The notes under the pieces are model-generated. The model worked only from the letters and a program-made list of their open reading frames with translations. It was not told the origin of the DNA and made no database searches. A program made the translations under genes and the position numbers. From a bacterium (GTDB lineage: Bacteria; Electryoneota; JAOADG01), in contig OY820579.1 of the NCBI GenBank assembly GCA_963681965.1, positions 1,664,001 to 1,728,000 on the forward strand: DNA of 64,000 nt, in the 5' to 3' direction. Positions 3,001 to 15,440 of this stretch are shown in pieces. Position 1 is the first letter of the stretch. Every line of letters begins with the position of its first letter.

Positions 3001-3683
3001 CCCGAGTGTACAAGATCAATCCGACAACCGGTACGACGATATCATTGTTGTCGCTCGGTTCTTCGACTGAAAATGCCAATGGATTGGCAATCACACCGCG
3101 TTGGAATCCGATGCTTTGGACTTCGATTGCGATGCTTGAAAATCCAACTACTGGTGGCAACGATCATGTCGTGATCAACGAGTTGGCATTCAATACGGTT
3201 TGGATTCAATATTCACCGCATGCGTCGACTCTGGAACCGGGTGCGATGGATTCAATTCAGATTCATATCGACAGTCATTTTATGCCGATTGATCGATACC
3301 GTGTGGCAATTCGGTTGGTCACCAACTCCGTGACCGATACCGTTGTCGTTCCGGTAGTGATGAATGTGTATGATCATTTGATCAATTCCGCCGAAGAACC
3401 TACGGCAAAATTGCCCGCGGTTTATGCGCTGGAACAGAACTACCCGAATCCGTTCAATCCTACTACAGCGATCACGTTTGCACTACCTCGTGCCGAACGG
3501 GTGAAACTGTCGGTTTACAATGAATTGGGTCAGGAAGTCGTGAAATTGGTCTCCAATCGACCGATGAGTGCAGGAATGCATTCGGTTACTTTCGATGGCA
3601 GCAAACTGGCGACCGGTCTTTATTTCTACAAGATCGAAGCGGGTTCGTTTGTTTCGACCCGAAAGATGGTTCTGTTGAAGTAG
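3..3683 (+). CDS. Large secreted multidomain protein, 5'-truncated by the window: probable C25 (gingipain-like) peptidase C-terminal part, Ig-like domains, carboxypeptidase-regulatory-like domain, beta-propeller and T9SS-type C-terminal sorting domain
   Basis: Frame is open from base 3. 'YWNNPLGDLSVNMW' resembles the end of a C25 domain (xNLLGDP). Ends 'LEQNYPNPFNPTT...GLYFYKIEAGSFVSTRKMVLLK'. Confidence 0.75.
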   Translation, partial: SGTNPGHNNVMSAGSFHAYGVKKARQPGPMFFEGKYQLWRNYIWNGISDSSQAVQFIYWNNPLGDLSVNMWSGVPRKLLTTTPRTMGLGQNRLELTVTKQQGGTPVAGAMVTAFKRNATGTITETYARAITDTSGHVLLTLNNATAGSMFVTVSTNQIGQNLYPKIDTVSIVQRPVDLSVANVVIQDDNNSGRVGNNNLTANPGETIDLTVSLQNRGSSNATGITGSITSTDPRVTVGTATATWPTDSAGSTVAANAAIRISLLNGFKDNEVIPLRLGVITDQDTNIISIPITVRTIKMAFVSYTTTPAVITPGQPASLSITVKNSGGLATASTNVSLFTLSPYAAFSVPTVAFPSLPLNTNVSNPTGQRFTIVSNGRTIPGTIVTIGAAFSAGSNIDTVYFTMAIGTRATYHATGPDPYGYMAFDKTDTSYRMLCPTYQWVEILPASGGHGTRLALTDNVIASNRSSNDVSLRVRLPFTVRYYGANYDSATICSNGWLAFGSQPNYQNSRNWHLPAFEGPRNIVAVNWCDQSNDGSNEGTYVWNDTANHRYIVTWKNTSMFTPSAQEYQLIIFDPRFNETATGDASLKFQYKVFNPAAYSGGETGVSYATVGICDSTYTRALEYCYWNMYNPGCAPITNGSNSNFAIMFTTSKPVTGHVGGLVTKASDNTPIRNAVVALTNGGRSAITDSNGHYSMRDVQIGAYNIQATCSGYNAATDTLTVVDSLTTTVNFHLTAPRLVISLNPQDTVLAPNDSLVCSLPDTGDATTLKIYLRNRGNGPLTWNSELLYGGVFDRVSPQPQPIDPRQQNGGDNSTDELNNLWDRVYTFDASAAVGGDQLLNGVEFDGLHMWITGATNGYARPHKLYKLTRAGQLLATYDCPDQTGLMGWRDMAWDGHYLYGSYSNYIDKIDTSNGSVVSRFQVQSISVARGIAIDTAAGIIYYADQNSAIYKMHLSDGTAAGSVASPGGLFGLAWYPTDPDNMPLYAFCRDSSGRTRGTRVYKINPTTGTTISLLSLGSSTENANGLAITPRWNPMLWTSIAMLENPTTGGNDHVVINELAFNTVWIQYSPHASTLEPGAMDSIQIHIDSHFMPIDRYRVAIRLVTNSVTDTVVVPVVMNVYDHLINSAEEPTAKLPAVYALEQNYPNPFNPTTAITFALPRAERVKLSVYNELGQEVVKLVSNRPMSAGMHSVTFDGSKLATGLYFYKIEAGSFVSTRKMVLLK

Positions 3684-3711
3684 ACGCTAAGTAGTAAATT
3701 TGTTTCGATAA

Positions 3712-3747
3712 GAAACCGGGACTCGCAAGGGTTCCGGTTTCGATTTT
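3712..3747 (+). terminator. Probable intrinsic terminator
   Basis: 13-bp stem gaaaccgggactc/gggttccggtttc with GCAA loop, just after the stop codon; short T tract. Confidence 0.7.
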
Positions 3748-3839
3748 CGGTAGTTTGCTTGGTTCGTCAAAGGGTATTGTGGGGTGTTTGCTTCCACGCG
3801 AGTTTTTTCCTAACTTTATCGGCTACAAAAAAGTAGTAT

Positions 3840-3913
3840 GCTGGGGTAGCTCAGTTGGTTAGAGCGCCAGACTGTGGATCTGGAGGTCGAGGGTTCAAGT
3901 CTCTCCCCCAGTA
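3840..3913 (+). tRNA. tRNA-His (GTG), CCA not encoded
   Basis: Full cloverleaf: acceptor GCTGGGG/CCCCAGT, D arm GCTC/GAGC, anticodon arm CCAGA-CTGTGGA-TCTGG, T arm GAGGG-TTCAAGT-CTCTC, discriminator A. Confidence 0.97.
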
Positions 3914-3914
3914 C
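3869..3914 (+). repeat. attL core (3' part of tRNA-His)
   Basis: agactgtggatctggaggtcgagggttcaagtctctcccccagtac, identical to 15395..15440. Confidence 0.95.
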
Positions 3915-3951
3915 TGATAAATAGAGATTTAAATCCGTTATCTCGATACCA

Positions 3952-3987
3952 AGTGCTAACGGTTTTAGGCAAAACTGCTAACGGTAT
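3952..3987 (+). promoter_or_regulatory. Putative integrase arm-type sites, left (two direct copies of TGCTAACGGT)
   Basis: Copies at 3954-3963 and 3976-3985; same 10-mer occurs twice near attR. Confidence 0.7.
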
Positions 3988-4008
3988 TGTCACCTTTCCG
4001 AGGTCACT

Positions 4009-5040
4009 ATGCCGTTTTCTCTTTTTTTGCGAGGCTCCAAGTGGTACATGAAAGTAACCGAGAGTGGGAAAGTTCGATGGAAGTCTACCGGATGTACTGA
4101 TCACGCTGAAGCACAGAAGTTCCTTAGTGCTCATACTAGAAGTGTTTCCAAAAAACCAGCTAGAAAGCCACCAGAACCAATTCTCACCACGCAGTCGATC
4201 ACTTTATCGACTTTCATCGAACAGTATCTCGTATGGTCTTCTGCGAATCATCGTTCTGGATCGGTTGAGATTGTACAGCGATCATTAACGAACTTCAAGA
4301 ATGTGATTGGGGATCTCCCCTTAACAGCGATCAATAAACGACATGTCGATTACTTCAAATGTATCCGAATGGTTCAGATCAAACCGGTGACAGTGAATAT
4401 CGAATTGCGTACGATTCGCAGTGCCTTGTATCAAGCAAAGCGCTGGGGATTGCTTCAGGAAGTTCCGGTTAATGGTAAGGATATGTTCAAGCTGAGTTCC
4501 GATACGATTGCATTATCTGAGCAGGAAGTAACTCTGTTATTGTCTTCGATCAAAGAACCGTGGTTGAAGACGATTGTACTTGTCGCAGTGAATACGGGTA
4601 TGCGAAGAAATGAGTTGTGTAATCTTCGCTGGTCGGATATTGACCAAGAGAAAGGATTGCTCACTATTCATGAATCGAAATCGGGAAAAGCTCGCTGTAT
4701 TCCAATTCCTCCCTCGCTGATCGAAGCGGTGAAAGCAATCCGTAACCACAGTGAGTGGGTTTTCTCGATCGATGGAAAATTGAAAGTGAAAGGAGTTTGG
4801 GCGAGTCATTTGTTCAAGAAGTACTGCCGAAAATTGGGATTGTCCGAGAAAGTTCACTTCCACACGTTACGCCATACTTGTGCATCGATCATGGTTCGCA
4901 ATGGTGTCAGTCTCTACCATGCTTCCAAAGTGCTGGGACACTCCTCTGTGGTGGTTACCGAGAAATACTACGCTCACATGGGAGTAGAAGATCTAAGGGG
5001 TGCGGTGAATGTGGTGGGGGATAGGATTGTTTATTGTTAA
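4009..5040 (+). CDS. Tyrosine recombinase / phage integrase
   Basis: Catalytic motifs TGMRRNEL (R), ESKSGK (K), HTLRH, LGH, YYAH (Y); adjacent to attL. Confidence 0.95.
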   Translation: MPFSLFLRGSKWYMKVTESGKVRWKSTGCTDHAEAQKFLSAHTRSVSKKPARKPPEPILTTQSITLSTFIEQYLVWSSANHRSGSVEIVQRSLTNFKNVIGDLPLTAINKRHVDYFKCIRMVQIKPVTVNIELRTIRSALYQAKRWGLLQEVPVNGKDMFKLSSDTIALSEQEVTLLLSSIKEPWLKTIVLVAVNTGMRRNELCNLRWSDIDQEKGLLTIHESKSGKARCIPIPPSLIEAVKAIRNHSEWVFSIDGKLKVKGVWASHLFKKYCRKLGLSEKVHFHTLRHTCASIMVRNGVSLYHASKVLGHSSVVVTEKYYAHMGVEDLRGAVNVVGDRIVYC

Positions 5041-5041
5041 T

Positions 5042-6175
5042 TCAATTTATTAATGCAACAACTTTAATTGTTATATTATCAATCAAATAATTTACAGAAG
5101 GGGGAATTGGAATTGCTATCAATGGATTAAAGAAAAGGAAGTTAATACCTCTAGCACTTTTAGAATTATTTTGGCTAGAAGGATAAATTATTCCATCAAA
5201 ACCATATTCGCGAATGGTTTGTGCTAAAAATTGAGTAACTAAATATTCAGTAGATTCGTCACTTGGTCGGATAGGTTCGCCAAACATTTTCCCTAAAGTT
5301 TCACGAGTTTCTAATACTTCTAGATATTTCAAAAATAGATCATAATGAGTGAACGGTGAATATTTTAGCGAAGTCTGACGAGGTAATAAGTCACATAATT
5401 TTACTTCTCTTTTTAGCTTAAACTTTGAAACAGATACAATATCTTTTTTCGCAGGACGTACCTCATTAATTGCAGTTAATACGCTATCAGCACAATACAA
5501 AAACGGTTGACCTAGAAGATTGGCTCGTCCAGCTCGCGCTTTTTCAGGAGGAGGAGCAATTATCGAAGAACCTGAATGATCTTTCCCGATTCTTGCACGC
5601 CACAAATCAACATTTTTTTGAAGAATAACATCAATCTTTTCCAAGAGTTCAATAAAGATTTTGAAACTATGACGTGTAGCATCATCTAGTTCAACAGTTG
5701 AAATAACCTTATTGAACGTCAACGAATGTCCATATTTTCTAATTGCTTTTTCTAGCAGAGACAAATAAGAGCTAATTGGGAAGTCTAATTTATCAGAATC
5801 ATCTCTATCGAACCAACTATCGGATAATTTAGCTCCATTCTTTGTAATTAAACCAGAATCTATTAAGATATTATCCAACAATTTACGCTGAGTAGTTTCC
5901 GCTAAGCTTAAAGAAAATACACTAAATCTATTTTGAAATTTAGACAGCAATGTTTCGCCTTCTTGAAATTTTCGACGAGAAGATAGAGAATAGTCAAAAT
6001 GAATAAAACTCCTATAGATTACTGGTGAGATCATTTCTCCTAGATCAGATGGCTCTAGACGATGAGTATTTATCTTTTTACAAAATGGACACTGTTCTTC
6101 TGAGAAAACACCATTTTCTCTAATAAATTCTTTAATACCTCTCTCTTGGAAACACCCATCGCAACATTCTACCAT
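5042..6175 (-). CDS. RES-domain protein with Cys-rich N-terminal domain
   Basis: RES-type motifs LWRAR, GRANxxGxPFLY, AINEVRP, YLVTQFLA, FDGIIYPSS; N-terminal CCxxC...CxxC; AGGAG RBS; visibly AT-rich. Confidence 0.85.
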   Translation of the reverse strand: MVECCDGCFQERGIKEFIRENGVFSEEQCPFCKKINTHRLEPSDLGEMISPVIYRSFIHFDYSLSSRRKFQEGETLLSKFQNRFSVFSLSLAETTQRKLLDNILIDSGLITKNGAKLSDSWFDRDDSDKLDFPISSYLSLLEKAIRKYGHSLTFNKVISTVELDDATRHSFKIFIELLEKIDVILQKNVDLWRARIGKDHSGSSIIAPPPEKARAGRANLLGQPFLYCADSVLTAINEVRPAKKDIVSVSKFKLKREVKLCDLLPRQTSLKYSPFTHYDLFLKYLEVLETRETLGKMFGEPIRPSDESTEYLVTQFLAQTIREYGFDGIIYPSSQNNSKSARGINFLFFNPLIAIPIPPSVNYLIDNITIKVVALIN

Positions 6176-6192
6176 TTCTATCTCCTAAAATA

Positions 6193-6768
6193 TTAACCAT
6201 ATATAATTATTAACCAGATGATTAAACTAGTAATTAAAACGATAGTAATTTCTAAAGTTACCAAGCAACCCGCCTTCGTTTGTTGTGTGGAAGGATCGCG
6301 AGCTGTAGGTGTATCATTCTCGAAAGCATTTTCCCCCAGTGGTGGGCGTTCTATTGGTGGAAGTTCTTCAGTTATTACCTTTGAAGTTGGACTCCACATT
6401 TCTGGATTTACCCCACTCTTAGTAATTACCCGGTATTTCATTCTGTGGTTACGACAATAGATTTCACCGGCTTGAAGTTTCCTTGTGGTATTTGCGTCTT
6501 GAAATAGATGCTCCCCTTTGACTTCCCGTAGTTCTTTGGAGCCATCTAAAAGCTCCACAAAGAAATCTGGTTGATAACGCCCGGAAGCACCCCACCATTT
6601 AGTATAGGGAATCTCTACTCCGTGGTGGTGTGTCCATTTTGCAACAAGCGGGTCACGATCAAGCTCATCCATATACTGAAGTTCCCAACCGGAATCGAAC
6701 CATTCTCCCGCTTGTCCACGAGGACTCTTCCGCCAACCTCGCGACCATCCGCGCCGATAGCGAGCCAT
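6193..6768 (-). CDS. TnsA-N/type III Res-like PD-(D/E)xK endonuclease with C-terminal transmembrane helix
   Basis: FDSGWE...IPY...YQPDFFV...EVKG; hydrophobic C-terminus LVTLEITIVLITSLIIWLIIIYG; start overlaps upstream stop (TAATG). Confidence 0.8.
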   Translation of the reverse strand: MARYRRGWSRGWRKSPRGQAGEWFDSGWELQYMDELDRDPLVAKWTHHHGVEIPYTKWWGASGRYQPDFFVELLDGSKELREVKGEHLFQDANTTRKLQAGEIYCRNHRMKYRVITKSGVNPEMWSPTSKVITEELPPIERPPLGENAFENDTPTARDPSTQQTKAGCLVTLEITIVLITSLIIWLIIIYG

Positions 6769-7115
6769 TATACCCGCCTTGAGACGATCTTAAAGATCAT
6801 CCCACGCTTTCGGCAAAACTCTTCACCGGCTTTCAATTTCCGTTCAGTGTCAGGATTACCACGCAGGTGTGTACCTTTTACCTCATGTATTTCCTTTGAG
6901 CCATCCTCACGCTCAATAATAAAATCAGGATTATATGTCGCTTTGGAGTGATCGAGTTTTAGGTAGGGAATTTTCAAAGATCGGCAGCGCTCCCACTTTT
7001 TAACGGTCTCATCCTCATCGAGCAAGAGCATATAGTCACGTTCCCATGTGGAATCGTAAGGTTCACTTTTCCGGGTACACCGCTTGAGATTACTGACTAT
7101 TCCGTGTTCACTCAT
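6768..7115 (-). CDS. Stand-alone TnsA-N/type III Res-like PD-(D/E)xK endonuclease
   Basis: YDSTWE...IPY...YNPDFII...EVKG; ATGA overlap with the helicase stop. Confidence 0.82.
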   Translation of the reverse strand: MSEHGIVSNLKRCTRKSEPYDSTWERDYMLLLDEDETVKKWERCRSLKIPYLKLDHSKATYNPDFIIEREDGSKEIHEVKGTHLRGNPDTERKLKAGEEFCRKRGMIFKIVSRRV

Positions 7116-9178
7116 GATTCTGGTGGATTGTCTAATATAGATTTTAAAAGCGTTCGGATATTAAACTCGTGTCGAATGTAATGTAAACTGTCTTGAAGCA
7201 TTAGCAGTTGTGCTTCCCGATCACATTGACCGATTGTCAGTCCACCTAAGAACTTTTCGCTAATGTGGTATAGAAGTACTGAATAGATTATTCCTCTACC
7301 ACTTGGCGGAAGCCCGTTATTGTATAGAAGTTCCTTAGCAATTTCAAGAAGTTGGTCACCGATTTCTGTTTGTCGCTGTTTGATCGAGAGCGTTTCCTTA
7401 GGAGTGTTAAAAAGATCATTAGAGGTACTTTCACTCTCCGAATAGACAGTAGATGTGACAAAGCCCGTTCCAGTTAAATCACGTTCACTTTCACCCGACC
7501 GAACCTCATTAGTTACCGAAATATATTGACGGGGGTATTCAATGGCGTGTAAGTAATCCTGCCAACTCCCTACGAAGGTTCTATCCTCGTCTTCGATAAT
7601 ATCAGGTAATTCGATTTCTTCTTCTTCCTCCTCAAGTACTGGTTCGGGTGTAATGATTGAATCGTCAGTTTCCTCCACAGTTTCGGGATTCCCTTCGTCA
7701 AGGTCGAGTGTCTCGGTCGCTCCAACATTCTCTTTTACATAAGCGTCAATTACCTTCCAAAGCCACCCGTGGTTAAGTTTCGGATGATCAACAACAACTA
7801 GACGTTCCTTTTCCTCCATATCTAAAGGAAACATTCGTCTCAGACCGCGCCCGATTACTTGTTGTCCGTATACCGGAGAGGAAAACTTGCGTAACAAAGC
7901 AATCACTGACACCGATCGAACGTCCCAACCTTCGCGTAACATCAGTACACTAACTACAGCATCGTAATTATTCTCGTCTTTCGGTGAACCGATTGTCATA
8001 GCGACACGTAATTCTTCCTTACGTTGTTCCGGGCTAATATCCGTTTCATCATCATCCTTTGAGGCAATGACAAAGGTATTCAAATGATGTTCCTCATCAA
8101 GGACTCGCTTTGCATTGTAAGCGTCTTTGATACTTACAGCGACCACAAAGAGAATCGGCTTGTATCTATCCTTTGCTCTTAATTTTTGCTCTTCAAGCCG
8201 CCTTACCGCCAGTTCCAATTGTTGTCGGAGTGGTTTGGGACTGGTTACCCACTTTGTAGCAGGAATTCGTTTGGCTTCAATTTCCTCCCACGGTATATCT
8301 TCCACTTTAACGACCGCTCCGGTTTCAGTATCGGTATAAGTCAGTTCCACAGTTTTTATATTCGGTTGACAAACATAAATTGTCTTTACGATACCGTCTT
8401 TTACGGCTTGTTTTATCCCGTATTCATAGATCATGCGACTACGAGGGTTTTCTTTGTCGGCGCGGTCTGGAGTCGCTGTAGTATCTACCCGTAGAAATGT
8501 TTTACCGGATTGTGAAAGAGAGTCAAGCAGTTCATCATACTTAGGCGCTACAGTATTGTGAGCTTCGTCATTGAACACAGCAATTCGCCCGGTGTGGTTC
8601 ATAATGACTGCGAAATTCTCAGCGCCTTGGTCACTAGAGGTATAGAGTTGGTGAATGTTACAAAGGGTTATCGAAGCATTTCGGATACCGGCACTACCTG
8701 AACCAGACTCCAATACATGGAGCACCATATCGTGAACAAAGTGAGCGTATTCCGGGGGAAAGAACTGGAACCGTTTCCACACGGAATCGTCACGATCCGG
8801 TTTTTCAAAGTCCTGTCGGAGCCGTTCTCTAACTATAGTATTCGGAGTAATGACGAGGAAAGCTCGAATCTCGTGACAAACCCGCAAATACGCCATCAGC
8901 GCCGCTATGATTGCAGTTTTACCGCCTCCGGTTACCACATTGAGGAGTAAATCCTTCCACCCTCGATCAACAGGTTTCAGGAATTCGTTGGCGAAAACAG
9001 TTCGAAGGAACGCTTCGGATTGATGTTTCCACAGTATTGGATGGTCTGCTGTCGTTGTTTCCAAAGCTAGGTGAGACAGGAAATCACGGACAATATCCGA
9101 GGTTTCGGGAGTACGAAAGCCGGATGTTACCCATGCTTGATAAGTTCGTAAATGCGAAGCCGTGAAGCTATTAAACAA
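7112..9178 (-). CDS. Type III restriction Res-like SF2 helicase/ATPase with no C-terminal nuclease domain
   Basis: Motifs VTGGGKT (I), NDEAH (II), TATP (III), MLREGWDV (V), QVIGRGLR (VI); TTG start after GGAG RBS. Confidence 0.88.
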   Translation of the reverse strand: MFNSFTASHLRTYQAWVTSGFRTPETSDIVRDFLSHLALETTTADHPILWKHQSEAFLRTVFANEFLKPVDRGWKDLLLNVVTGGGKTAIIAALMAYLRVCHEIRAFLVITPNTIVRERLRQDFEKPDRDDSVWKRFQFFPPEYAHFVHDMVLHVLESGSGSAGIRNASITLCNIHQLYTSSDQGAENFAVIMNHTGRIAVFNDEAHNTVAPKYDELLDSLSQSGKTFLRVDTTATPDRADKENPRSRMIYEYGIKQAVKDGIVKTIYVCQPNIKTVELTYTDTETGAVVKVEDIPWEEIEAKRIPATKWVTSPKPLRQQLELAVRRLEEQKLRAKDRYKPILFVVAVSIKDAYNAKRVLDEEHHLNTFVIASKDDDETDISPEQRKEELRVAMTIGSPKDENNYDAVVSVLMLREGWDVRSVSVIALLRKFSSPVYGQQVIGRGLRRMFPLDMEEKERLVVVDHPKLNHGWLWKVIDAYVKENVGATETLDLDEGNPETVEETDDSIITPEPVLEEEEEEIELPDIIEDEDRTFVGSWQDYLHAIEYPRQYISVTNEVRSGESERDLTGTGFVTSTVYSESESTSNDLFNTPKETLSIKQRQTEIGDQLLEIAKELLYNNGLPPSGRGIIYSVLLYHISEKFLGGLTIGQCDREAQLLMLQDSLHYIRHEFNIRTLLKSILDNPPES

Positions 9179-9187
9179 GGCAAACTC

Positions 9188-11326
9188 CTAGTGTACTTTG
9201 AGTACTTGGATTTTAATACCCTCACCACCAAGATCATCTTGAACCCGGCAAGCGATACTAACAGGTGTTCCGGGTTCCAGATCCTCGAAGGTGTATTCCA
9301 CAGTCAGCTCACCTTCAAAGCCACGCTCACCTTTGCCTTTCTTTTCTTTCCGACAAAGTTGAAACCCTTGTGTCGCTGAGAAGATTCCACCTCGGAAATC
9401 AAAGTCCCATTGCACATTGATTATCTTACCACCCATAACCGAACGTGCCTCCGATACATCGAAGCGATATTTCATGGTGCTTAAACGGGTTACACCAATT
9501 CTGGGAATTTCTGGAGGCAAGATAAAACGGAAGAAATCCTTGTACTTATCGTGTTTTTTCGTGACATGCTTCTTTAGTTCTTCGCCATCCAAAGACCACA
9601 ATTGAAGTTTGATGAACTGAATCGGTTTTTGTTTGCCCATTGCAACAAGTTTGTCGGCATAAGCCCGGGCACTCGGTAGAATAGTCCAACCAATCATAAC
9701 AGCTTGCCGTTCTTCCTGTCTACGGCTTTTCATCACAGCGCTTGCAAAGCCCTTTACGTCATTTGCATTAATCGCGTCCGTTTCCTTTACTCCACCGATC
9801 CAGAGTAATTCTCTCCCTTTCACGCCATGAATATTCGAGTCGGAACCAGTCCACTTCCGAGCACCATAACAAGCTAGAACAAACGCCCGGAATTCATCGT
9901 CACTCAGCTTTGTAAGTCGATCGATCTCGTAGATACCCCAATGCTCTACTGAGTAACCAGTATCCCGTAGGATTGAGGATTCTACAGCTTTCTTCTTAGA
10001 CGCCTCGACACTTGAAAGTGTAGGGTCTTCGATAATAAGACCTAATGGAGTAGAAAGTGTTTCTTCCTTCACTTTCTTTTTGGTTCGTTTTATATCTTGA
10101 AGTGAAGGAGCTAGAAGGCGTGCAATTCGGTCGGCAGTAAGAGCCACAGCCACACGGGATATATCACTTCCGATCCAACGTCTCCCGAGTCGGTGAGCAA
10201 CGGCGCAAGTTGCACCTCCGCCACAGAAGAAATCGGCAACAACATCATTTCTGTCTGTCGTTGCATTGATGATTCTTTCTAAGAGTTGCTCCGGTTTCTG
10301 AGTGGGGTAACCGATTTTTTCAATTGCTTGTGAATTTACTGGAGGTATGTCAATCCAGATCGATCCGACAGGAATCCCTTTAGATTCATCGAGATATCTT
10401 TTATAGGAAGGTTGACCATTTTTTGTAAATACTATACGACCATTTTTTAAGTATTCATCTATTGTCTCTTGTGTCCACTGCCAATGTCTACCAGTGGGTG
10501 GGCTTAAAAGTTGACCATTAAACAATCTAGCTGTTCCTTGTCCCGCTGCAGTAGCATCACCTAATCGGAACCTACGACCATCCGGATCTTCACCCGTATA
10601 ATGACTATCAACATATTTTGAAGTATGTTCACTGTATTGAGGATTGTGTTTTGGCTGTTTCGAATTGGAGTATAAGAAAATTATATCGTGAATATTTGCG
10701 AATCTTCTAGCGTCGCCGTGGATTGAAACTCTTTGCCAAACGATCTCGGTTATGAAATTGTCGTAACCGAATATTTTATCTAGTTCACATTTGACATAAT
10801 GACTCGCATGCCAATCAAGATGAACGTAAATGCTTCCAGTTGATTTGAGAAGCCGTTTCATCTCGTAGAGACGTGTATTCAACCAAATCAAGTAACCGGG
10901 CATTCCCCCTTCCCAGATATCCGAGAATGAACGAATTTCGTTTTTGTCGCCGAAAATGATATTGTAGTTTCGACCGGAAAAGAACGGAGGGTCAATGTAG
11001 ATAAGATCGATGGACTCACTGGGAAGCATTCTCATGACATGAAGATTGTCACCAAAAAAGAGCCGGTTACGACCTTGAGGAAATAGTTCATTAACTTTAC
11101 CGAGGCGCTCGGCTTGGGTTTTTACCACATCTACAACTTGAAAAGGGAGTTCGATACGGGGGTAGTGGTGCTCGAAGCGCCGTTCCGGGTCGTAACCAAG
11201 GGGTATCTCTGCAACTGGTACATGACCGAAGCGAGCCGGAATTTTGAAGAAACCTTTTTGTTCAGGTATCTCTACTGGTGAGATTATAGGTTGTTCCGGG
11301 ACTTCATCATCTAGGGGAGCCGACAT
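9188..11326 (-). CDS. Beta-class N6-adenine/N4-cytosine DNA methyltransferase (type III Mod-like) with long C-terminal extension
   Basis: LIYIDPPF (motif IV) before ADFFCGGG (motif I), YPTQKPE. Start moved from the ORF-track 11398 to ATG 11326, which follows a GAGG RBS. Confidence 0.92.
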   Translation of the reverse strand: MSAPLDDEVPEQPIISPVEIPEQKGFFKIPARFGHVPVAEIPLGYDPERRFEHHYPRIELPFQVVDVVKTQAERLGKVNELFPQGRNRLFFGDNLHVMRMLPSESIDLIYIDPPFFSGRNYNIIFGDKNEIRSFSDIWEGGMPGYLIWLNTRLYEMKRLLKSTGSIYVHLDWHASHYVKCELDKIFGYDNFITEIVWQRVSIHGDARRFANIHDIIFLYSNSKQPKHNPQYSEHTSKYVDSHYTGEDPDGRRFRLGDATAAGQGTARLFNGQLLSPPTGRHWQWTQETIDEYLKNGRIVFTKNGQPSYKRYLDESKGIPVGSIWIDIPPVNSQAIEKIGYPTQKPEQLLERIINATTDRNDVVADFFCGGGATCAVAHRLGRRWIGSDISRVAVALTADRIARLLAPSLQDIKRTKKKVKEETLSTPLGLIIEDPTLSSVEASKKKAVESSILRDTGYSVEHWGIYEIDRLTKLSDDEFRAFVLACYGARKWTGSDSNIHGVKGRELLWIGGVKETDAINANDVKGFASAVMKSRRQEERQAVMIGWTILPSARAYADKLVAMGKQKPIQFIKLQLWSLDGEELKKHVTKKHDKYKDFFRFILPPEIPRIGVTRLSTMKYRFDVSEARSVMGGKIINVQWDFDFRGGIFSATQGFQLCRKEKKGKGERGFEGELTVEYTFEDLEPGTPVSIACRVQDDLGGEGIKIQVLKVH

Positions 11327-11447
11327 TTTTAACCTCTGTGGTCTATGATGAATCAATATACAATAGGTTTCTATTCGATCCTTACAAACAAGTAACAATT
11401 TGTATTCTTCGCTTTATCAATCCCCCTACCCCTAAAATAATGCAATT

Positions 11448-11810
11448 CTAGTACCGACGGTACGAGCGGCGCGGGGGTTCTTTCACGCTAAATTCACGAC
11501 CGGAAGCGATCAAGAATAATATTTTGCTAATGGTCGGATCATCGGAACGATTCGCGATCCGCTTGGTCATCCATTCTGGAAGTGTCCCTTTTATTCGACA
11601 GACCTTCAACTGGTTCAGGTTAATCGAACGGGATAACGAATCTATCAACCACACTGGACAATCACAGACACCACGTTCCACAGAAGAGATGAATTGCTGC
11701 GTTACTTCCAGCTTACGAGCGAGTTCGGCTTGAGTGTAACCGTGATCGATTCTCGCTTTCCGAATCTCTTTCCCGATAAGTTCCCGTGTCGTTTGATCCT
11801 CGGTATCCAT
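11448..11810 (-). CDS. XRE-family helix-turn-helix regulator
   Basis: IGKEIRKARIDHGYTQAELARKLEVTQQFISSVERG. Confidence 0.9.
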   Translation of the reverse strand: MDTEDQTTRELIGKEIRKARIDHGYTQAELARKLEVTQQFISSVERGVCDCPVWLIDSLSRSINLNQLKVCRIKGTLPEWMTKRIANRSDDPTISKILFLIASGREFSVKEPPRRSYRRY

Positions 11811-11856
11811 GCTCTACCCCCTACCACAGTTGAAGTTCACCCTACCTAACAACCAA

Positions 11857-11951
11857 TGAAGGATGAAGGATTCTCGCCCGAATTTCATTAGCACTTTATA
11901 TACCCATTTAAAAAATCCGATGAAAAATAGGTCTAAATCCATCATCCTTCA
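11857..11951. repeat. 16-bp inverted repeat around an AT-rich core; candidate replication origin
   Basis: tgaaggatgaaggatt (11857-11872) and aatccatcatccttca (11936-11951), one mismatch, directly downstream of the primase gene. Confidence 0.55.
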
Positions 11952-11960
11952 CACTGCTTA

Positions 11961-14327
11961 TCAGGTTGACTGCTCCTCCGGTTTATTCAATGGTTTCAGT
12001 TGCAGACCCTTGAAGTAAATACCATCGGCTCTCTTGACCTTGGTGAACCCGTTGATCCTGACCAGACTCATCGAGAATGATTTCGGAGATATGCAAATCT
12101 CACCTTCACCGTACTCAGACTTCCACCATTCTTGAAAAGCAGCAAATAGATCAGCATGAGATACAGATCCTTGTTCGACGGTCTCACAGCATTCCTTCGT
12201 GAAACTGTAAACTTGATCGGTATCTTCCTGCCATGCCCGGGTAGCAAGTTGTACTTGTTCAGGCTCACTACCGAACCCCTTCTCGATGTGGTACTCATTC
12301 AATCCTTGAAGCGCCCACATGAGAACGCCATCCAACTCAGACTCGATGATTCTCTTGTCTAAGTCCATGATACGCTCTTGTTCAGGAATGTGAACCCGGA
12401 ACGGAATCACTCTTGCTCGATCCCAATACGCTTCATCGGCATCTCGCAATCGTGGGAGTTTATTGGTAGCGAACCAGACCTTGAACTGTGGTTTGAAGGT
12501 GAACTCGCGCTCATTCAGATTACGAGCATTGAGTGGATCGTTACCTGTTACTTGCTTGACAGCGTTCACACTCAACTGATACCCTTCATCACATTCCGAG
12601 ATGGTAACCAACCTTTTCCCATGGAGCATAGCTCGCTCTCGCTTCACTTCCAGATCTTTTCGATTGGAGGCAAAGGCTTCGAAACCGACACTCACACTGT
12701 AATCTCCAATGAGAGCCGAGATAACATTCAGGAAGGTAGATTTTCCTGTTGCCGTTTTATTGTCGAATACAAGCCACAGTTTTCGCTTGGGATTACCGCC
12801 CAAAAGCGTGTAACCGACACACTTCTGAACGTATCGAATCAGCTCTGAGTCATTGTTCAACGCATGCTTAATGAATCGTTCCCACTTTGGACACTTGGCA
12901 GAGGGATCATAGCTTCCATTGATACTCTTAGTGATATAATGTTCCCGGTCGAAATCTAATTGTACAAGCGTTCGAAGATCGATTGTACAGTTTCGGCAAG
13001 TAAGCAGGTACTCAATCTTATCGAGTTCTTCCACATTGACAGAAATATCCTCAACGACTCTGCAACTCTTTTCAATGCTAGATAGACCAGAACTCTCGTA
13101 AGCTCGTGTGACTGATTCAAGCAGTTTCTTACGTGTAGATCCGGATAAACTGCAGTATTTGCCAATCGATGATTGAACAAACAATCGCAGAGCAGAAAGT
13201 AGTACTACGTCTTCAACATGCTTCCACAGTTGACCTGTCCAGTGATACCATCGTCCTAGATTCGGTATAAATCGCCAATCCTGACCATGCGCCCCAATAA
13301 AGGCATCGGCAAACCACGCAAGCGGTAACTTCGAGCATTCATCCCAAACCTTCGGATCACGCCATTTAACCTCTTGAATCGATAGACTGGGCAAGGGAAA
13401 GTTCCCTCGATTACAAGCGCGCCTGATCGTTCGTTCCCGATAATCGCGACGTTCCCACTTATCAGCTCGGTACAATCCGGAAGCGTAAAAGACTTGCTCT
13501 ACCCAAGCTGGATCGTCTTTGATTCTAAGTAGCTTCGAACAGAGAGCAAGATCGGCTCGGCTTTCATCGAAATCGTAACGATCAGAGTTCCCTTCCCAGA
13601 GTTCGGTAAATATCTCATCCCGATCTATTGCACGTTGAATAATTCGCTCATCCTGTTCAGAGAGCTTGCGTGGTGTCGCTGTATTCACTTCTGAATGCCA
13701 CTCTACCGACTCGACAATGCTCTCAGTGAAATACTTACTGTGGAGAGTGTCGATTGCCTCCTGACGGGATTCTAGCGTTTTCGGGGTTCCTTCGAGATGA
13801 TTACCCGTTACAATAAAGAAACGACCGGTATCGTAGAACTCAATATCTTTGAAGCCGTATTCTTCCATTCCGTGTTTGTGACTAGTCTTCGTCAATTCAC
13901 CCTTGACTAGAATGTGGAAACCCTTACCGCTCTTCGACCATTCAGTATAACTGTTGGCAGTCTTAATGATCTCCAGCGCTTCGGGGACGATCTCACCGGT
14001 ATCATCCACGCACTTATCAAGATCGATACCGGTTATTCCACACTCTTTAGTAAAGACAAAGCCGATACCATCGAAACCACCTTTTTCATAGGCTCTGAGT
14101 ACTTCAGCATAAGGTTTCCACTTCGAAGGATCATTCACTTTTGCTTTGAAGCCGTTGATTTGATAGGGTGCTTTGTTTCTGTGGAGTACCCAGTTGGGTA
14201 TCTGGGTAAGCTCTTGGGGAATTGGGAGTTGTTGAAAATCAGGTTGTTGTTGATATTTTTCAGAATTTTGGGGATCCCCTCTTGCTTTTGTAGGAGTATC
14301 CACCTTACTTTGTTTTAAGGTTTTCAT
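11961..14327 (-). CDS. NrS-1-like primase-polymerase fused to a D5/P4-family SF3 helicase
   Basis: GIGFVF...GIDLDKC...YTEWSKSGKGFHI...IEFYDTGRFFIVTG (prim-pol); DESRADLAL...DKWERRDY helical domain; ATGKST Walker A, VKQVTGND, FATNKLP. Confidence 0.9.
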   Translation of the reverse strand: MKTLKQSKVDTPTKARGDPQNSEKYQQQPDFQQLPIPQELTQIPNWVLHRNKAPYQINGFKAKVNDPSKWKPYAEVLRAYEKGGFDGIGFVFTKECGITGIDLDKCVDDTGEIVPEALEIIKTANSYTEWSKSGKGFHILVKGELTKTSHKHGMEEYGFKDIEFYDTGRFFIVTGNHLEGTPKTLESRQEAIDTLHSKYFTESIVESVEWHSEVNTATPRKLSEQDERIIQRAIDRDEIFTELWEGNSDRYDFDESRADLALCSKLLRIKDDPAWVEQVFYASGLYRADKWERRDYRERTIRRACNRGNFPLPSLSIQEVKWRDPKVWDECSKLPLAWFADAFIGAHGQDWRFIPNLGRWYHWTGQLWKHVEDVVLLSALRLFVQSSIGKYCSLSGSTRKKLLESVTRAYESSGLSSIEKSCRVVEDISVNVEELDKIEYLLTCRNCTIDLRTLVQLDFDREHYITKSINGSYDPSAKCPKWERFIKHALNNDSELIRYVQKCVGYTLLGGNPKRKLWLVFDNKTATGKSTFLNVISALIGDYSVSVGFEAFASNRKDLEVKRERAMLHGKRLVTISECDEGYQLSVNAVKQVTGNDPLNARNLNEREFTFKPQFKVWFATNKLPRLRDADEAYWDRARVIPFRVHIPEQERIMDLDKRIIESELDGVLMWALQGLNEYHIEKGFGSEPEQVQLATRAWQEDTDQVYSFTKECCETVEQGSVSHADLFAAFQEWWKSEYGEGEICISPKSFSMSLVRINGFTKVKRADGIYFKGLQLKPLNKPEEQST

Positions 14328-14358
14328 TAGAGTGCACCTCTTTTAGATGACCTTGCGT

Positions 14359-14394
14359 ATGCTCATGGTGTGACAGCACTGTGAGCATTTTTTT
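14359..14394 (+). terminator. Plus-strand terminator-like hairpin, antisense to the primase leader
   Basis: atgctcatggtg-tgacag-cactgtgagcat followed by a T run; two G-U pairs form only on the + strand. Confidence 0.5.
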
Positions 14395-14931
14395 CGGCTA
14401 ATCCATTCGAATTGAATTACACCGAAACGAATTACTTTTGTCGATTCAACGACAATCCAAATATAAGGAATATATTTGGAAAATCCAATATATTATTTGC
14501 TTATAAAGTCAATTTTGAGTGATCGTATCGCTTTGAATTATAGTCGAATATAATATTCATATTGATATTAGGATTGGTTGTGAAAATTATTGATTGGCGC
14601 GGTCTATAGGTATCAATTGCAAGATCACAAACAGATTTTTGCACTAAATTGTGACTAGAAAAATACAACTCTTTTCTACTGACTCTCGGAGAGTTTCCAC
14701 GTTCAGAGGTCAGTATTTATCGGGGTGTGTTCTTGTTCGAGTAATCTGACTATTGACAAACTATGCGATTTCCGGGGGGAGATCAAGTCACCAAGATACA
14801 TCGGTAAGTTTGCATTTACTTTTCAAGATAATCGAACAATCGAGGAAGAGTATATCGGTGAATGGCGGGGATAGCTTTCTGTGTAAATTGGAAATGTATC
14901 ATTTCATGTACGTTTGTAGAGAGGATTCGAA

Positions 14932-15144
14932 ATGGGAGTAGTTAATTTTCTTTCCGATAAATCGGGACGTGTTTGGGCAGTACCCACCTCACCTGAAAAA
15001 TCACCTTGGGTTCTTTCCGATCCCAAAGGTGGTAATTGGACTGAAGCACCTCGTTCCAAAGTACCAGAAAAGTTGGTTCCATTAGACTCTAGTGGTACAA
15101 CTGAAGCAACACGTTCATTTGTAGCATACGGATTGCGTTCGTAA
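14932..15144 (+). CDS. Small hypothetical protein (70 aa)
   Basis: ATG preceded by GAGGA; no recognised motif. Confidence 0.5.
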   Translation: MGVVNFLSDKSGRVWAVPTSPEKSPWVLSDPKGGNWTEAPRSKVPEKLVPLDSSGTTEATRSFVAYGLRS

Positions 15145-15277
15145 ATGTCTTTCCATCCAGTTTCTGATCAAGGATAATTTATTTGACCAAATTCTCGTTG
15201 AGTAAATTCTCGGTAATCGATACCCCAAAATGAATCCCAACCTCCCTCTTGACTTTGACTCGGGAATTTTCGAGATT

Positions 15278-15323
15278 AGTGCTAACGGTTCGCACCCAAA
15301 ATTCATCGATACCGTTAGCAGTT
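15278..15323. promoter_or_regulatory. Putative integrase arm-type sites, right (inverted pair)
   Basis: agtgctaacggtt 15278-15290 equals 3952-3964; ataccgttagcagtt 15309-15323 is the reverse complement of 3973-3987. Confidence 0.7.
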
Positions 15324-15394
15324 GTCGCTAAAAAAATCTCTGGAAATCGTTAATTATCAGTAGCTAAGAGGGTGTATCAGCGCTGGCGAATCAA

Positions 15395-15440
15395 AGACTG
15401 TGGATCTGGAGGTCGAGGGTTCAAGTCTCTCCCCCAGTAC
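15395..15440 (+). repeat. attR core (displaced 3' part of tRNA-His)
   Basis: Exact 46-bp copy of 3869..3914. Confidence 0.95.

Follow-up and report, generated by a model that had tools for sequence, protein, structure and literature searches.

Five tightly packed genes and their products

A stretch of 64,000 nucleotides (nt) from a bacterium of the Electryoneota lineage JAOADG01 (assembly GCA_963681965.1, contig OY820579.1, positions 1,664,001 to 1,728,000 of the forward strand), here called the window, carries a group of five genes that seems to contain a type III-like restriction-modification (R-M) cassette in an unusual, split form. All five were called on the minus strand and lie tightly packed, in the order Mod, superfamily 2 (SF2) helicase, nuclease A, nuclease B and RES. 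The Mod gene (11326-9188, 712 amino acids) has an ATG start with a GAGG ribosome-binding site 5' of it, and its frame is also open from the first TTG (9188-11398). The helicase gene (9178-7112, 688 amino acids) has a TTG start with AGGAG on its 5' side and is separated from Mod by 9 nt. The start of nuclease A (7115-6768, 115 amino acids) overlaps the helicase stop in an ATGA, nuclease B (6768-6193, 191 amino acids) is joined to nuclease A by a TAATG overlap, and the RES gene (6175-5042, 377 amino acids), which has an AGGAG of its own, follows 17 nt further on. A preliminary description, made from the letters of this stretch, had given the same orientation, gaps and overlaps, and the open reading frame (ORF) calls and junction reads agree with it exactly. 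Between 4959 and 14881 the DNA shows zero differences from contigs of public sequencing runs from two studies; the breaks between the genes were therefore not introduced by the assembly. Promoter and terminator scans returned counts that match shuffled sequence (25 against 22.9 and 9 against 9.3, respectively), so that operon boundaries cannot be drawn from these scans.

The first gene encodes a beta-class amino-methyltransferase with an internal target-recognition region. Residues 106-396 match PF01555 (N6_N4_Mtase, 1.6e-41), motif IV (DPPF) precedes motif I (FxGGG), and the hypervariable target-recognition region extends over residues 211-330, approximately. Across 30 relatives the catalytic blocks are 83-88% identical to the window protein, while residues 241-300 are 7-12% identical and contain many gaps. 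Such variability is what a specificity-determining region would be expected to show. A C-terminal extension of about 300 amino acids (residues ~410-712; window 9188-10100) is conserved in the family as well; an NVQWDF block in it is near-invariant, and the end reads VQDDxGGEG. The extension gave no match in Pfam or among Protein Data Bank (PDB) sequences and only unnamed clusters in the ESM Atlas; it may be a docking platform for the helicase or the nuclease.

The second protein is a ResIII/Rad25-type SF2 ATPase with intact ATPase motifs. Pfam recognizes PF04851 (ResIII, 1.3e-15) and no nuclease domain, and all 30 helicases compared have the motifs GGGKT, DEAH, TATP and QxxGRGxR (K87, D204-H207, T234-P237 and Q439-R447) unchanged. 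The structural model, with a predicted local distance difference test score (pLDDT) of 79.5, consists of two RecA lobes, an acidic disordered linker (500-532) and, at the C-terminus, a bundle of helices (599-683). A fold search places it nearest to RadD, XPB/TFIIH, EcoP15I Res (rank 4), SauUSI and HsdR. Pfam and the model thus bear out the earlier observation that the protein has Res-type ATPase motifs and ends at 688 amino acids without a PD-(D/E)xK motif. Among 7999 scored candidates, 3355 are related to it at E <= 0.001. The best 120 of these are 387-727 amino acids long, though the search took lengths up to 1204, and many of them cover 100% of the query with 40-71% identity.

Both small proteins match the TnsA-like endonuclease family PF08722 (8.1e-10 for nuclease A and 1.7e-11 for nuclease B). 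The model of nuclease A (pLDDT 91.4) has the TnsA catalytic domain as its top fold match, with a template modelling (TM) score of 0.74, and weaker matches to McrC, to Bax1 (E ~0.02) and to the small subunit of R.BspD6I. Searches of PDB sequences with nuclease A and with the nuclease profile returned nothing significant. The pattern DS.WE, IPY, Y.PDF and EVKG, which had been noticed in both small ORFs, is present in both proteins, and none of the 33 aligned nucleases, which include types A and B, departs from E25, D64, E78 and K80. Nuclease B consists of a PD-(D/E)xK core, a Pro-rich linker and a C-terminal hydrophobic tail, with a Kyte-Doolittle maximum over 19 residues of 2.53 at 171-189.

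The cassette at related loci and among known systems

A scan of contigs with a single helicase query gave no relatives. A profile scan with the helicase alignment, in which about 590 stretches were confirmed by tblastn, then gave 80 related loci, counting one genome per species. They are found in Chloroflexota, Planctomycetota, Verrucomicrobiota, Bacteroidota, Patescibacteria, Thermodesulfobacteriota, Nitrospirota and others, and in one archaeal metagenome-assembled genome (MAG). A Mod gene lies upstream of the helicase on the same strand at 71 of the 80; at eight of the other nine loci the DNA available on that side is shorter than 820 nt, and the ninth is L064. Behind the helicase, a separate nuclease ORF of about 115 amino acids is present at 76 of the 80 loci, and three more (L039, L055 and L068) stop at the contig edge. 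The first in-frame start of this nuclease is no further than 35 nt ahead of the helicase stop or 5 nt beyond it in 63 of the 76 cases, and its N-terminus is conserved from the first Met, so that a separate, translationally coupled initiation is indicated. The split between helicase and nuclease is old and conserved, in many phyla. The frequent presence of both Mod and a free nuclease argues for a core that is a widespread three-gene variant of type III-like R-M, made up of Mod, a nuclease-less ATPase and a small nuclease.

The possibility that the split is private to this genome, due to a frameshift or an assembly error, had been raised in the preliminary description together with the proposal to search genomes for the same gene order and split point. 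The search has been made and answers this negatively. Nothing beyond the first impression of a short Res speaks for an ordinary type III res gene that has decayed or been assembled wrongly. The recurrence of the split across many phyla, the conservation of the Met at which the nuclease starts, the existence of full-length helicase homologues of 660-727 amino acids and the identity of the DNA in contigs from two studies make such an origin virtually impossible.

The order of the genes leaves room for additions. At 15 of the 71 loci, more than 500 nt separate Mod and helicase. This slot was inspected at five loci (L002, 5309-7990; L003, 2457-6516; L036, 6343-7707; L050, 1862-3699; L075, 6052-7997), where it holds genes for Schlafen/AlbA_2 proteins with HATPase_c_4 (three loci), an AAA_21/SMC-like ATPase, an AAA_16/BrxC-like ATPase, an HD protein and a radical-SAM SPL-like enzyme.

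The presence of two nuclease genes is, in contrast to the split, a local feature: it is confined to the window and, among the 80 loci, to L001, L003 and L075. In a tree of the nucleases, which omits the L075 type-A ORF since its start is unclear, type A (3 rows, support 99/97) and type B (5 rows, 99/98) form sister clades within one A+B clade (97/95), to which none of the 25 single nucleases belongs. The tree points to a single tandem duplication, confined to the small clade of the window, and nucleases A and B are true paralogues that both keep their catalytic residues. The duplication suggested in the preliminary description is thereby upheld, with E..PD..ExK kept in both copies, as an event of this lineage. 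Type B carries a Pro-rich linker, and a transmembrane-like tail occurs in seven of eight type-B proteins (Kyte-Doolittle 19-residue maximum at least 2.25) and in none of 28 others (at most 0.55). Since the N-terminus has no signal sequence, the hydrophobic tail is most simply read as a tail anchor, and nuclease B is probably tethered in this way to the inner membrane.

Since nuclease B departs from the family norm by this tail and adjoins RES, it could be imagined that these two genes form a separate, membrane-associated abortive-infection module behind a complete system of Mod, helicase and nuclease A. This seems most improbable. Type B is found without RES at L001, L002, L003 and L075, and at L002 it is the sole nuclease behind the helicase, so that it can serve the cassette alone.

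The textbook example of a restriction motor fused to its nuclease is the single Res subunit of type III enzymes. With the classical representatives EcoP1I and EcoP15I (Mod2Res1; PDB 4zcf) the cassette shares the mod-then-res order, a beta-class Mod with an internal variable recognition region, the ResIII-type SF2 ATPase motifs I, II (DEAH), III and VI, and a PD-(D/E)xK nuclease. It differs from them in that the nuclease is a separate protein of about 115 amino acids and not the C-terminal domain of Res; a single polypeptide joining SF2 ATPase and PD-(D/E)xK nuclease is not what is found here. Furthermore, the helicase has its own C-terminal helical bundle, Mod has the extra C-terminal region of about 300 amino acids, and the sequence similarity between helicase and EcoP15I Res is limited to one motif region (2.1e-4).

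A further link exists with NF046055, the BPTD_3080 family restriction endonuclease, a fused helicase-nuclease of about 970-1040 amino acids. It is the best NCBIfam match of the helicase (3.6e-21), which aligns to its helicase part, and of both nucleases, with nuclease A aligning to positions 858-937 of 970 (2.1e-8) and nuclease B to positions 858-928. These matches, together with those to the PADLOC REase_III models, link the helicase and both nucleases to a type III-like Res. As in the cassette, a beta-class methyltransferase adjoins the fused gene, namely in L098 and L103. The distance is nevertheless considerable: the scores are far under the family cut-off (75 against 800 bits), the local identity with the helicase is 24-30%, save short motif matches of 44-50%, and the neighbouring methyltransferase matches the catalytic part of Mod only. 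Of 79 genomes of the phylum, 7 contain NF046055 itself at a score above its cut-off, and its family name was not found in the open-access literature. Two open frames of 126 and 97 amino acids (G043:C200:5878-6195 and G066:C515:1622-1897) match only the nuclease end of NF046055 (869-969), and free-standing nucleases may thus exist beside this lineage too.

The preliminary description had gone further and had the nuclease detached from Res. The separate nuclease gene stands; the direction of the change is not supported, given that the nearest relatives of helicase and nuclease are free-standing and NF046055 is distant. Among the 150 best of 7953 nuclease relatives, two exceed 800 amino acids and neither has the architecture of a type III Res, one carrying helix-turn-helix (HTH) domains before the nuclease and the other being a Strawberry-notch-type protein of 2774 amino acids with a ResIII match. 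With free-standing nearest relatives and long ones that are not Res-like, the nuclease may have been detached, or the fused forms may have arisen by fusion.

A separation of restriction motor and nuclease into different subunits is also known from CglI and NgoAVII. According to the abstracts (PMC4267653, PMC5861437), methyltransferase, nuclease and SF2 helicase-like ATPase are three proteins in these systems; DEAD and Z1 domains are found in the helicase-like subunit of CglI, while site recognition and nuclease are joined in the R protein. At this level of description, the protein families are unrelated to those of the cassette. The small nuclease of the cassette has no room for a recognition domain, and therefore Mod must read the site. 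Archaeal XPB-Bax1 (PDB 6p4o, 6p4f) likewise combines an XPB/Rad25-type SF2 helicase with a separate nuclease. It differs by its repair context and the absence of a methyltransferase; moreover, Bax1 is much larger and its fold match is weak. Two further publications were considered as accounts of the split and rejected on the basis of their accessible parts: Murray et al. 2021 (PMC8259958) deal with a third ATPase, located 5' of mod, and not with a nuclease split off from Res, and Iyer et al. 2008 (PMC2292703) mention Rad25-like helicases fused to DNases of the restriction-endonuclease (REase) fold. No description of the cassette was found in the open-access literature and no named system was assigned by PADLOC, in agreement with the earlier impression that the architecture has no name.

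The RES gene and the surrounding island

The last gene of the string encodes a protein with an N-terminal CxxC..CxxC zinc ribbon, a helical region and a RES domain (PF08808, residues 191-353, 1.8e-14) with conserved catalytic-region residues: R193, R195, R217, Y227 and E238 are invariant in six of six sequences, as are C29 and C32. Residues 4-352 align with RES proteins bearing PF18870 at a probability of 99.85, with low confidence in the middle of the N-terminal region, and the CxxC..CxxC element and the Arg, Glu and Ser-region residues of the RES domain are common to both, as the helical N-terminal region probably is. The first 190 residues of the window protein do not themselves match PF18870; three relatives (P0122, P0123 and P0125) show sub-threshold matches (0.013-0.002) and two others (P0124 and P0126) carry the domain. 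In the accessible part of the survey by Anantharaman et al. 2013 (PMC3710099), HEPN/RES-NTD1 domains are described as fused to RES, in some cases with an N-terminal zinc ribbon. Layouts of an N-terminal domain and an effector are likened there to Abi proteins, and its tables list such genes in R-M operons. The window protein has the look of an abortive-infection-type solo protein with zinc ribbon, N-terminal domain and RES domain, and it is likely an effector that consumes nicotinamide adenine dinucleotide (NAD+). It does not belong to a classical Xre-RES pair: no Xre/DUF2384 gene adjoins it, since nuclease B lies upstream and the convergent integrase downstream. The HTH protein at 11448-11810 was considered as its antitoxin and rejected, as it has no DUF2384 match, lies 5 kilobases (kb) away and is absent from the related loci.

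The main departure from the preliminary description concerns this gene, which had been taken as part of a five-gene system. The RES protein has no tblastn match at any of the 80 related loci, including the closest ones. Behind the nuclease, the three closest loci that are long enough have housekeeping genes, namely for an aminotransferase (L003), a malic enzyme (L075) and CTP synthase (L002). In a set of 5.8 billion proteins it has five relatives, the best with 39% identity. A scan with a two-sequence alignment for the neighbourhood of these relatives gave one metagenome contig of 1.5 kb (L081) without usable flank, so that none can be placed beside such a cassette. Finally, the guanine plus cytosine (G+C) content of the gene is 0.33, against 0.42-0.46 in its neighbours. 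Absence from the related loci, scarcity of relatives, lower G+C and a ribosome-binding site of its own are the grounds on which RES is left out of the system. It looks like a separate acquisition, a piece of island cargo that is probably co-transcribed with the restriction genes and yet is not their conserved partner.

It could still be maintained that all five genes act as one defence system, with RES as a coupled second-line toxin that is triggered, for example, when restriction is blocked. RES is on the same strand and follows after a mere 17 nt in which no terminator-like site is seen. Abortive-infection-type genes inside R-M operons are a known theme, as far as the accessible tables of the survey cited above go, and related loci also hold accessory conflict genes inside the cassette. 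Set against the distribution and composition of the gene, these points leave such a coupling unlikely. The RES gene fits, instead, the pattern of changeable accessory cargo that is seen at the related loci. To read it as cargo beside the system and not as a subunit matters when "new five-gene systems" are counted.

The genes are part of a larger unit. Positions 3869-15440 of the window, about 11.5 kb, form an integrative island in a tRNA-His gene. The integration target is the tRNA-His (GTG) predicted by ARAGORN on the plus strand at 3840-3914. Its last 46 nt (3869-3914, plus strand) constitute the left attachment site, attL, and a repeat search found an exact copy of this tRNA 3' end at 15395-15440 (plus strand), which is attR and the far border of the island. 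The repeat detected is 53 nt long, with its first 46 nt identical, and the two copies are 11.5 kb apart. Next to the tRNA lies a tyrosine integrase gene (4009-5040, plus strand; PF00589 1.1e-33, phrog_1 integrase 1.6e-64). On the other side of the cassette, the minus strand encodes a P4/D5-type primase-helicase of 788 amino acids (11961-14327; PF08706, PF19263 and PF22763, TIGR01613 1e-70, phrog_1829 1.3e-147), which is the replication module of the island. The set expected of a tRNA-integrating island with a P4-type replication module is thus complete: tyrosine integrase beside the tRNA gene, direct repeat of its 3' end on the opposite border, and primase-helicase. The helicase of the cassette has a full-length match in none of three genomes of the same family and in 2 of 40 relatives searched, and this near-absence fits a horizontal arrival. 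Taken together, the integrase, the primase, the att repeats and the rarity of the helicase in relatives lead to the view that the cassette is cargo of the integrative element, a point missed in the preliminary description that is put forward here on the strength of the sequence. An uninterrupted tRNA-His site was looked for in genomes of the same genus and family, which gave short, chance-level DNA matches only and are too divergent to show such a site.

The ends of the island have features of their own. A count of 10-mers found TGCTAACGGT twice beside attL (3954-3985, plus strand) and twice beside attR (15280-15320, one direct and one inverted). These four copies in the 64-kb window, where 0.07 are expected, all lie within about 120 nt of the att sites and are probably arm sites of the integrase or an excisionase. 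Between primase and attR, about 1 kb of AT-rich DNA (14330-15390, G+C 0.38-0.40) contains three short ORFs of 62-70 amino acids without a PHROG match; it could hold an excisionase, an origin or regulatory RNAs of the island. In the public runs, a 292-nt contig matches the 3' end of the integrase gene (4959-5019) with four differences and then diverges, and contigs in all four runs (X1, X3, X4 and X5) join 15159 to 15227, skipping 67 nt. The populations sampled may thus contain another element related to this one, or a variant that differs in length close to attR. The string of minus-strand genes is headed by an Xre-type HTH protein of 120 amino acids (11448-11810, minus strand; PF01381, PADLOC HTH_VI and control-protein models), which is either an island regulator or a controller protein; no tblastn match to it was found at the 80 related loci.

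The position of the cassette between the primase and the integrase of the island brings to mind a DNA-processing or epigenetic module in the service of the island itself, for replication, packaging or host control, and not for defence. TnsA-like nucleases also serve transposons, and the nuclease profile matches the phage families phrog_218 and phrog_190 as well. Such a role has very little to recommend it in view of the related loci, of which 2 of 80 have a match to the window-type integrase, while housekeeping genes flank those inspected. Furthermore, the hypervariable region of Mod and the conflict genes in the slot between Mod and helicase are hallmarks of R-M.

Proposed mechanism and significance

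The reading favoured here, to which we assign a probability of roughly three in four, is that of a tRNA-His island with a conserved split R-M cassette of Mod, ATPase and nuclease, a local duplication of the nuclease and a separately acquired RES gene. The core would work like a type III R-M enzyme, as a split-Res variant, and a five-gene system with a RES effector is not supported.

Several points weigh against this reading. In comparisons with PDB profiles, Mod matches RsrI, CcrM and MboIIA (~1e-27) before the type III Mods (~1e-19), and type II beta-class models and structures outscore those of type III. Nuclease A falls below the cut-off of the Pfam type III endonuclease family PF19778 (3.8e-4, 20.7 bits against 23.4), and the C-terminal parts of the PADLOC REase_III models match the small nucleases weakly (~1e-3). 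Two of the related loci depart from the common order. At L064 an integrase-like gene (3080-4140) lies directly upstream of the helicase, with no Mod within 4 kb; this cassette may have been interrupted or rearranged by a mobile element. L005 is the sole locus with downstream room yet no nuclease, having OsmC-like and SnoaL-like genes instead (9992-11140), and is possibly a decayed copy. The count of RES genes stems from one divergent tblastn query, which a distant RES could escape, and the 17 nt between nuclease B and RES contain no terminator-like site, so that a functional link is possible. The tail of the type-B nucleases is judged by hydropathy alone. We infer restriction and methylation as functions, and likewise the contacts between subunits, the membrane location and the activity of RES. 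A complex prediction from helicase and nuclease A alignments scored 0.12, where the mark is 0.32, and speaks neither way.

On the favoured reading, the function of Res would be divided over two proteins, the nuclease-less SF2 ATPase and the PD-(D/E)xK nuclease of about 115 amino acids. The beta-class Mod would read an asymmetric site through its hypervariable region and methylate the host DNA. On unmethylated foreign DNA, Mod and ATPase might signal to each other along the DNA at the expense of ATP, and the small nuclease would join them as a subunit and make the cut. In the subclade of the window, the two nucleases would share the cutting, with copy B, by virtue of its linker and hydrophobic tail, tethered to the membrane. 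RES would act alone, either as an abortive-infection effector that consumes NAD+ or as a toxin that stabilizes the island.

Classical type III enzymes hemi-methylate an asymmetric site and, with ATP, cleave where two unmethylated sites lie in inverse orientation; they need two converging complexes to make a double-strand break. It is tempting to speculate about a membrane-tethered two-nuclease enzyme, in which a tail-anchored nuclease B holds Mod and helicase at the inner membrane where phage DNA enters, the A/B pair supplies two active sites with which one complex makes a double-strand break, and the co-transcribed RES serves as an NAD+-depleting fallback. This elaboration is unlikely. The duplicated, tail-anchored nuclease that it builds on would be the most original part of the locus. 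The local oddities are indeed twofold: a duplicated nuclease of which both copies are apparently active, to judge from their conserved residues, and a restriction nuclease with a predicted membrane anchor. The wider interest lies with the family, which occurs in many bacterial phyla and in one archaeal MAG and in which motor and nuclease stay separate proteins with coupled translation. Nature offers here a case in which to study how a nuclease is recruited and licensed by a restriction motor.

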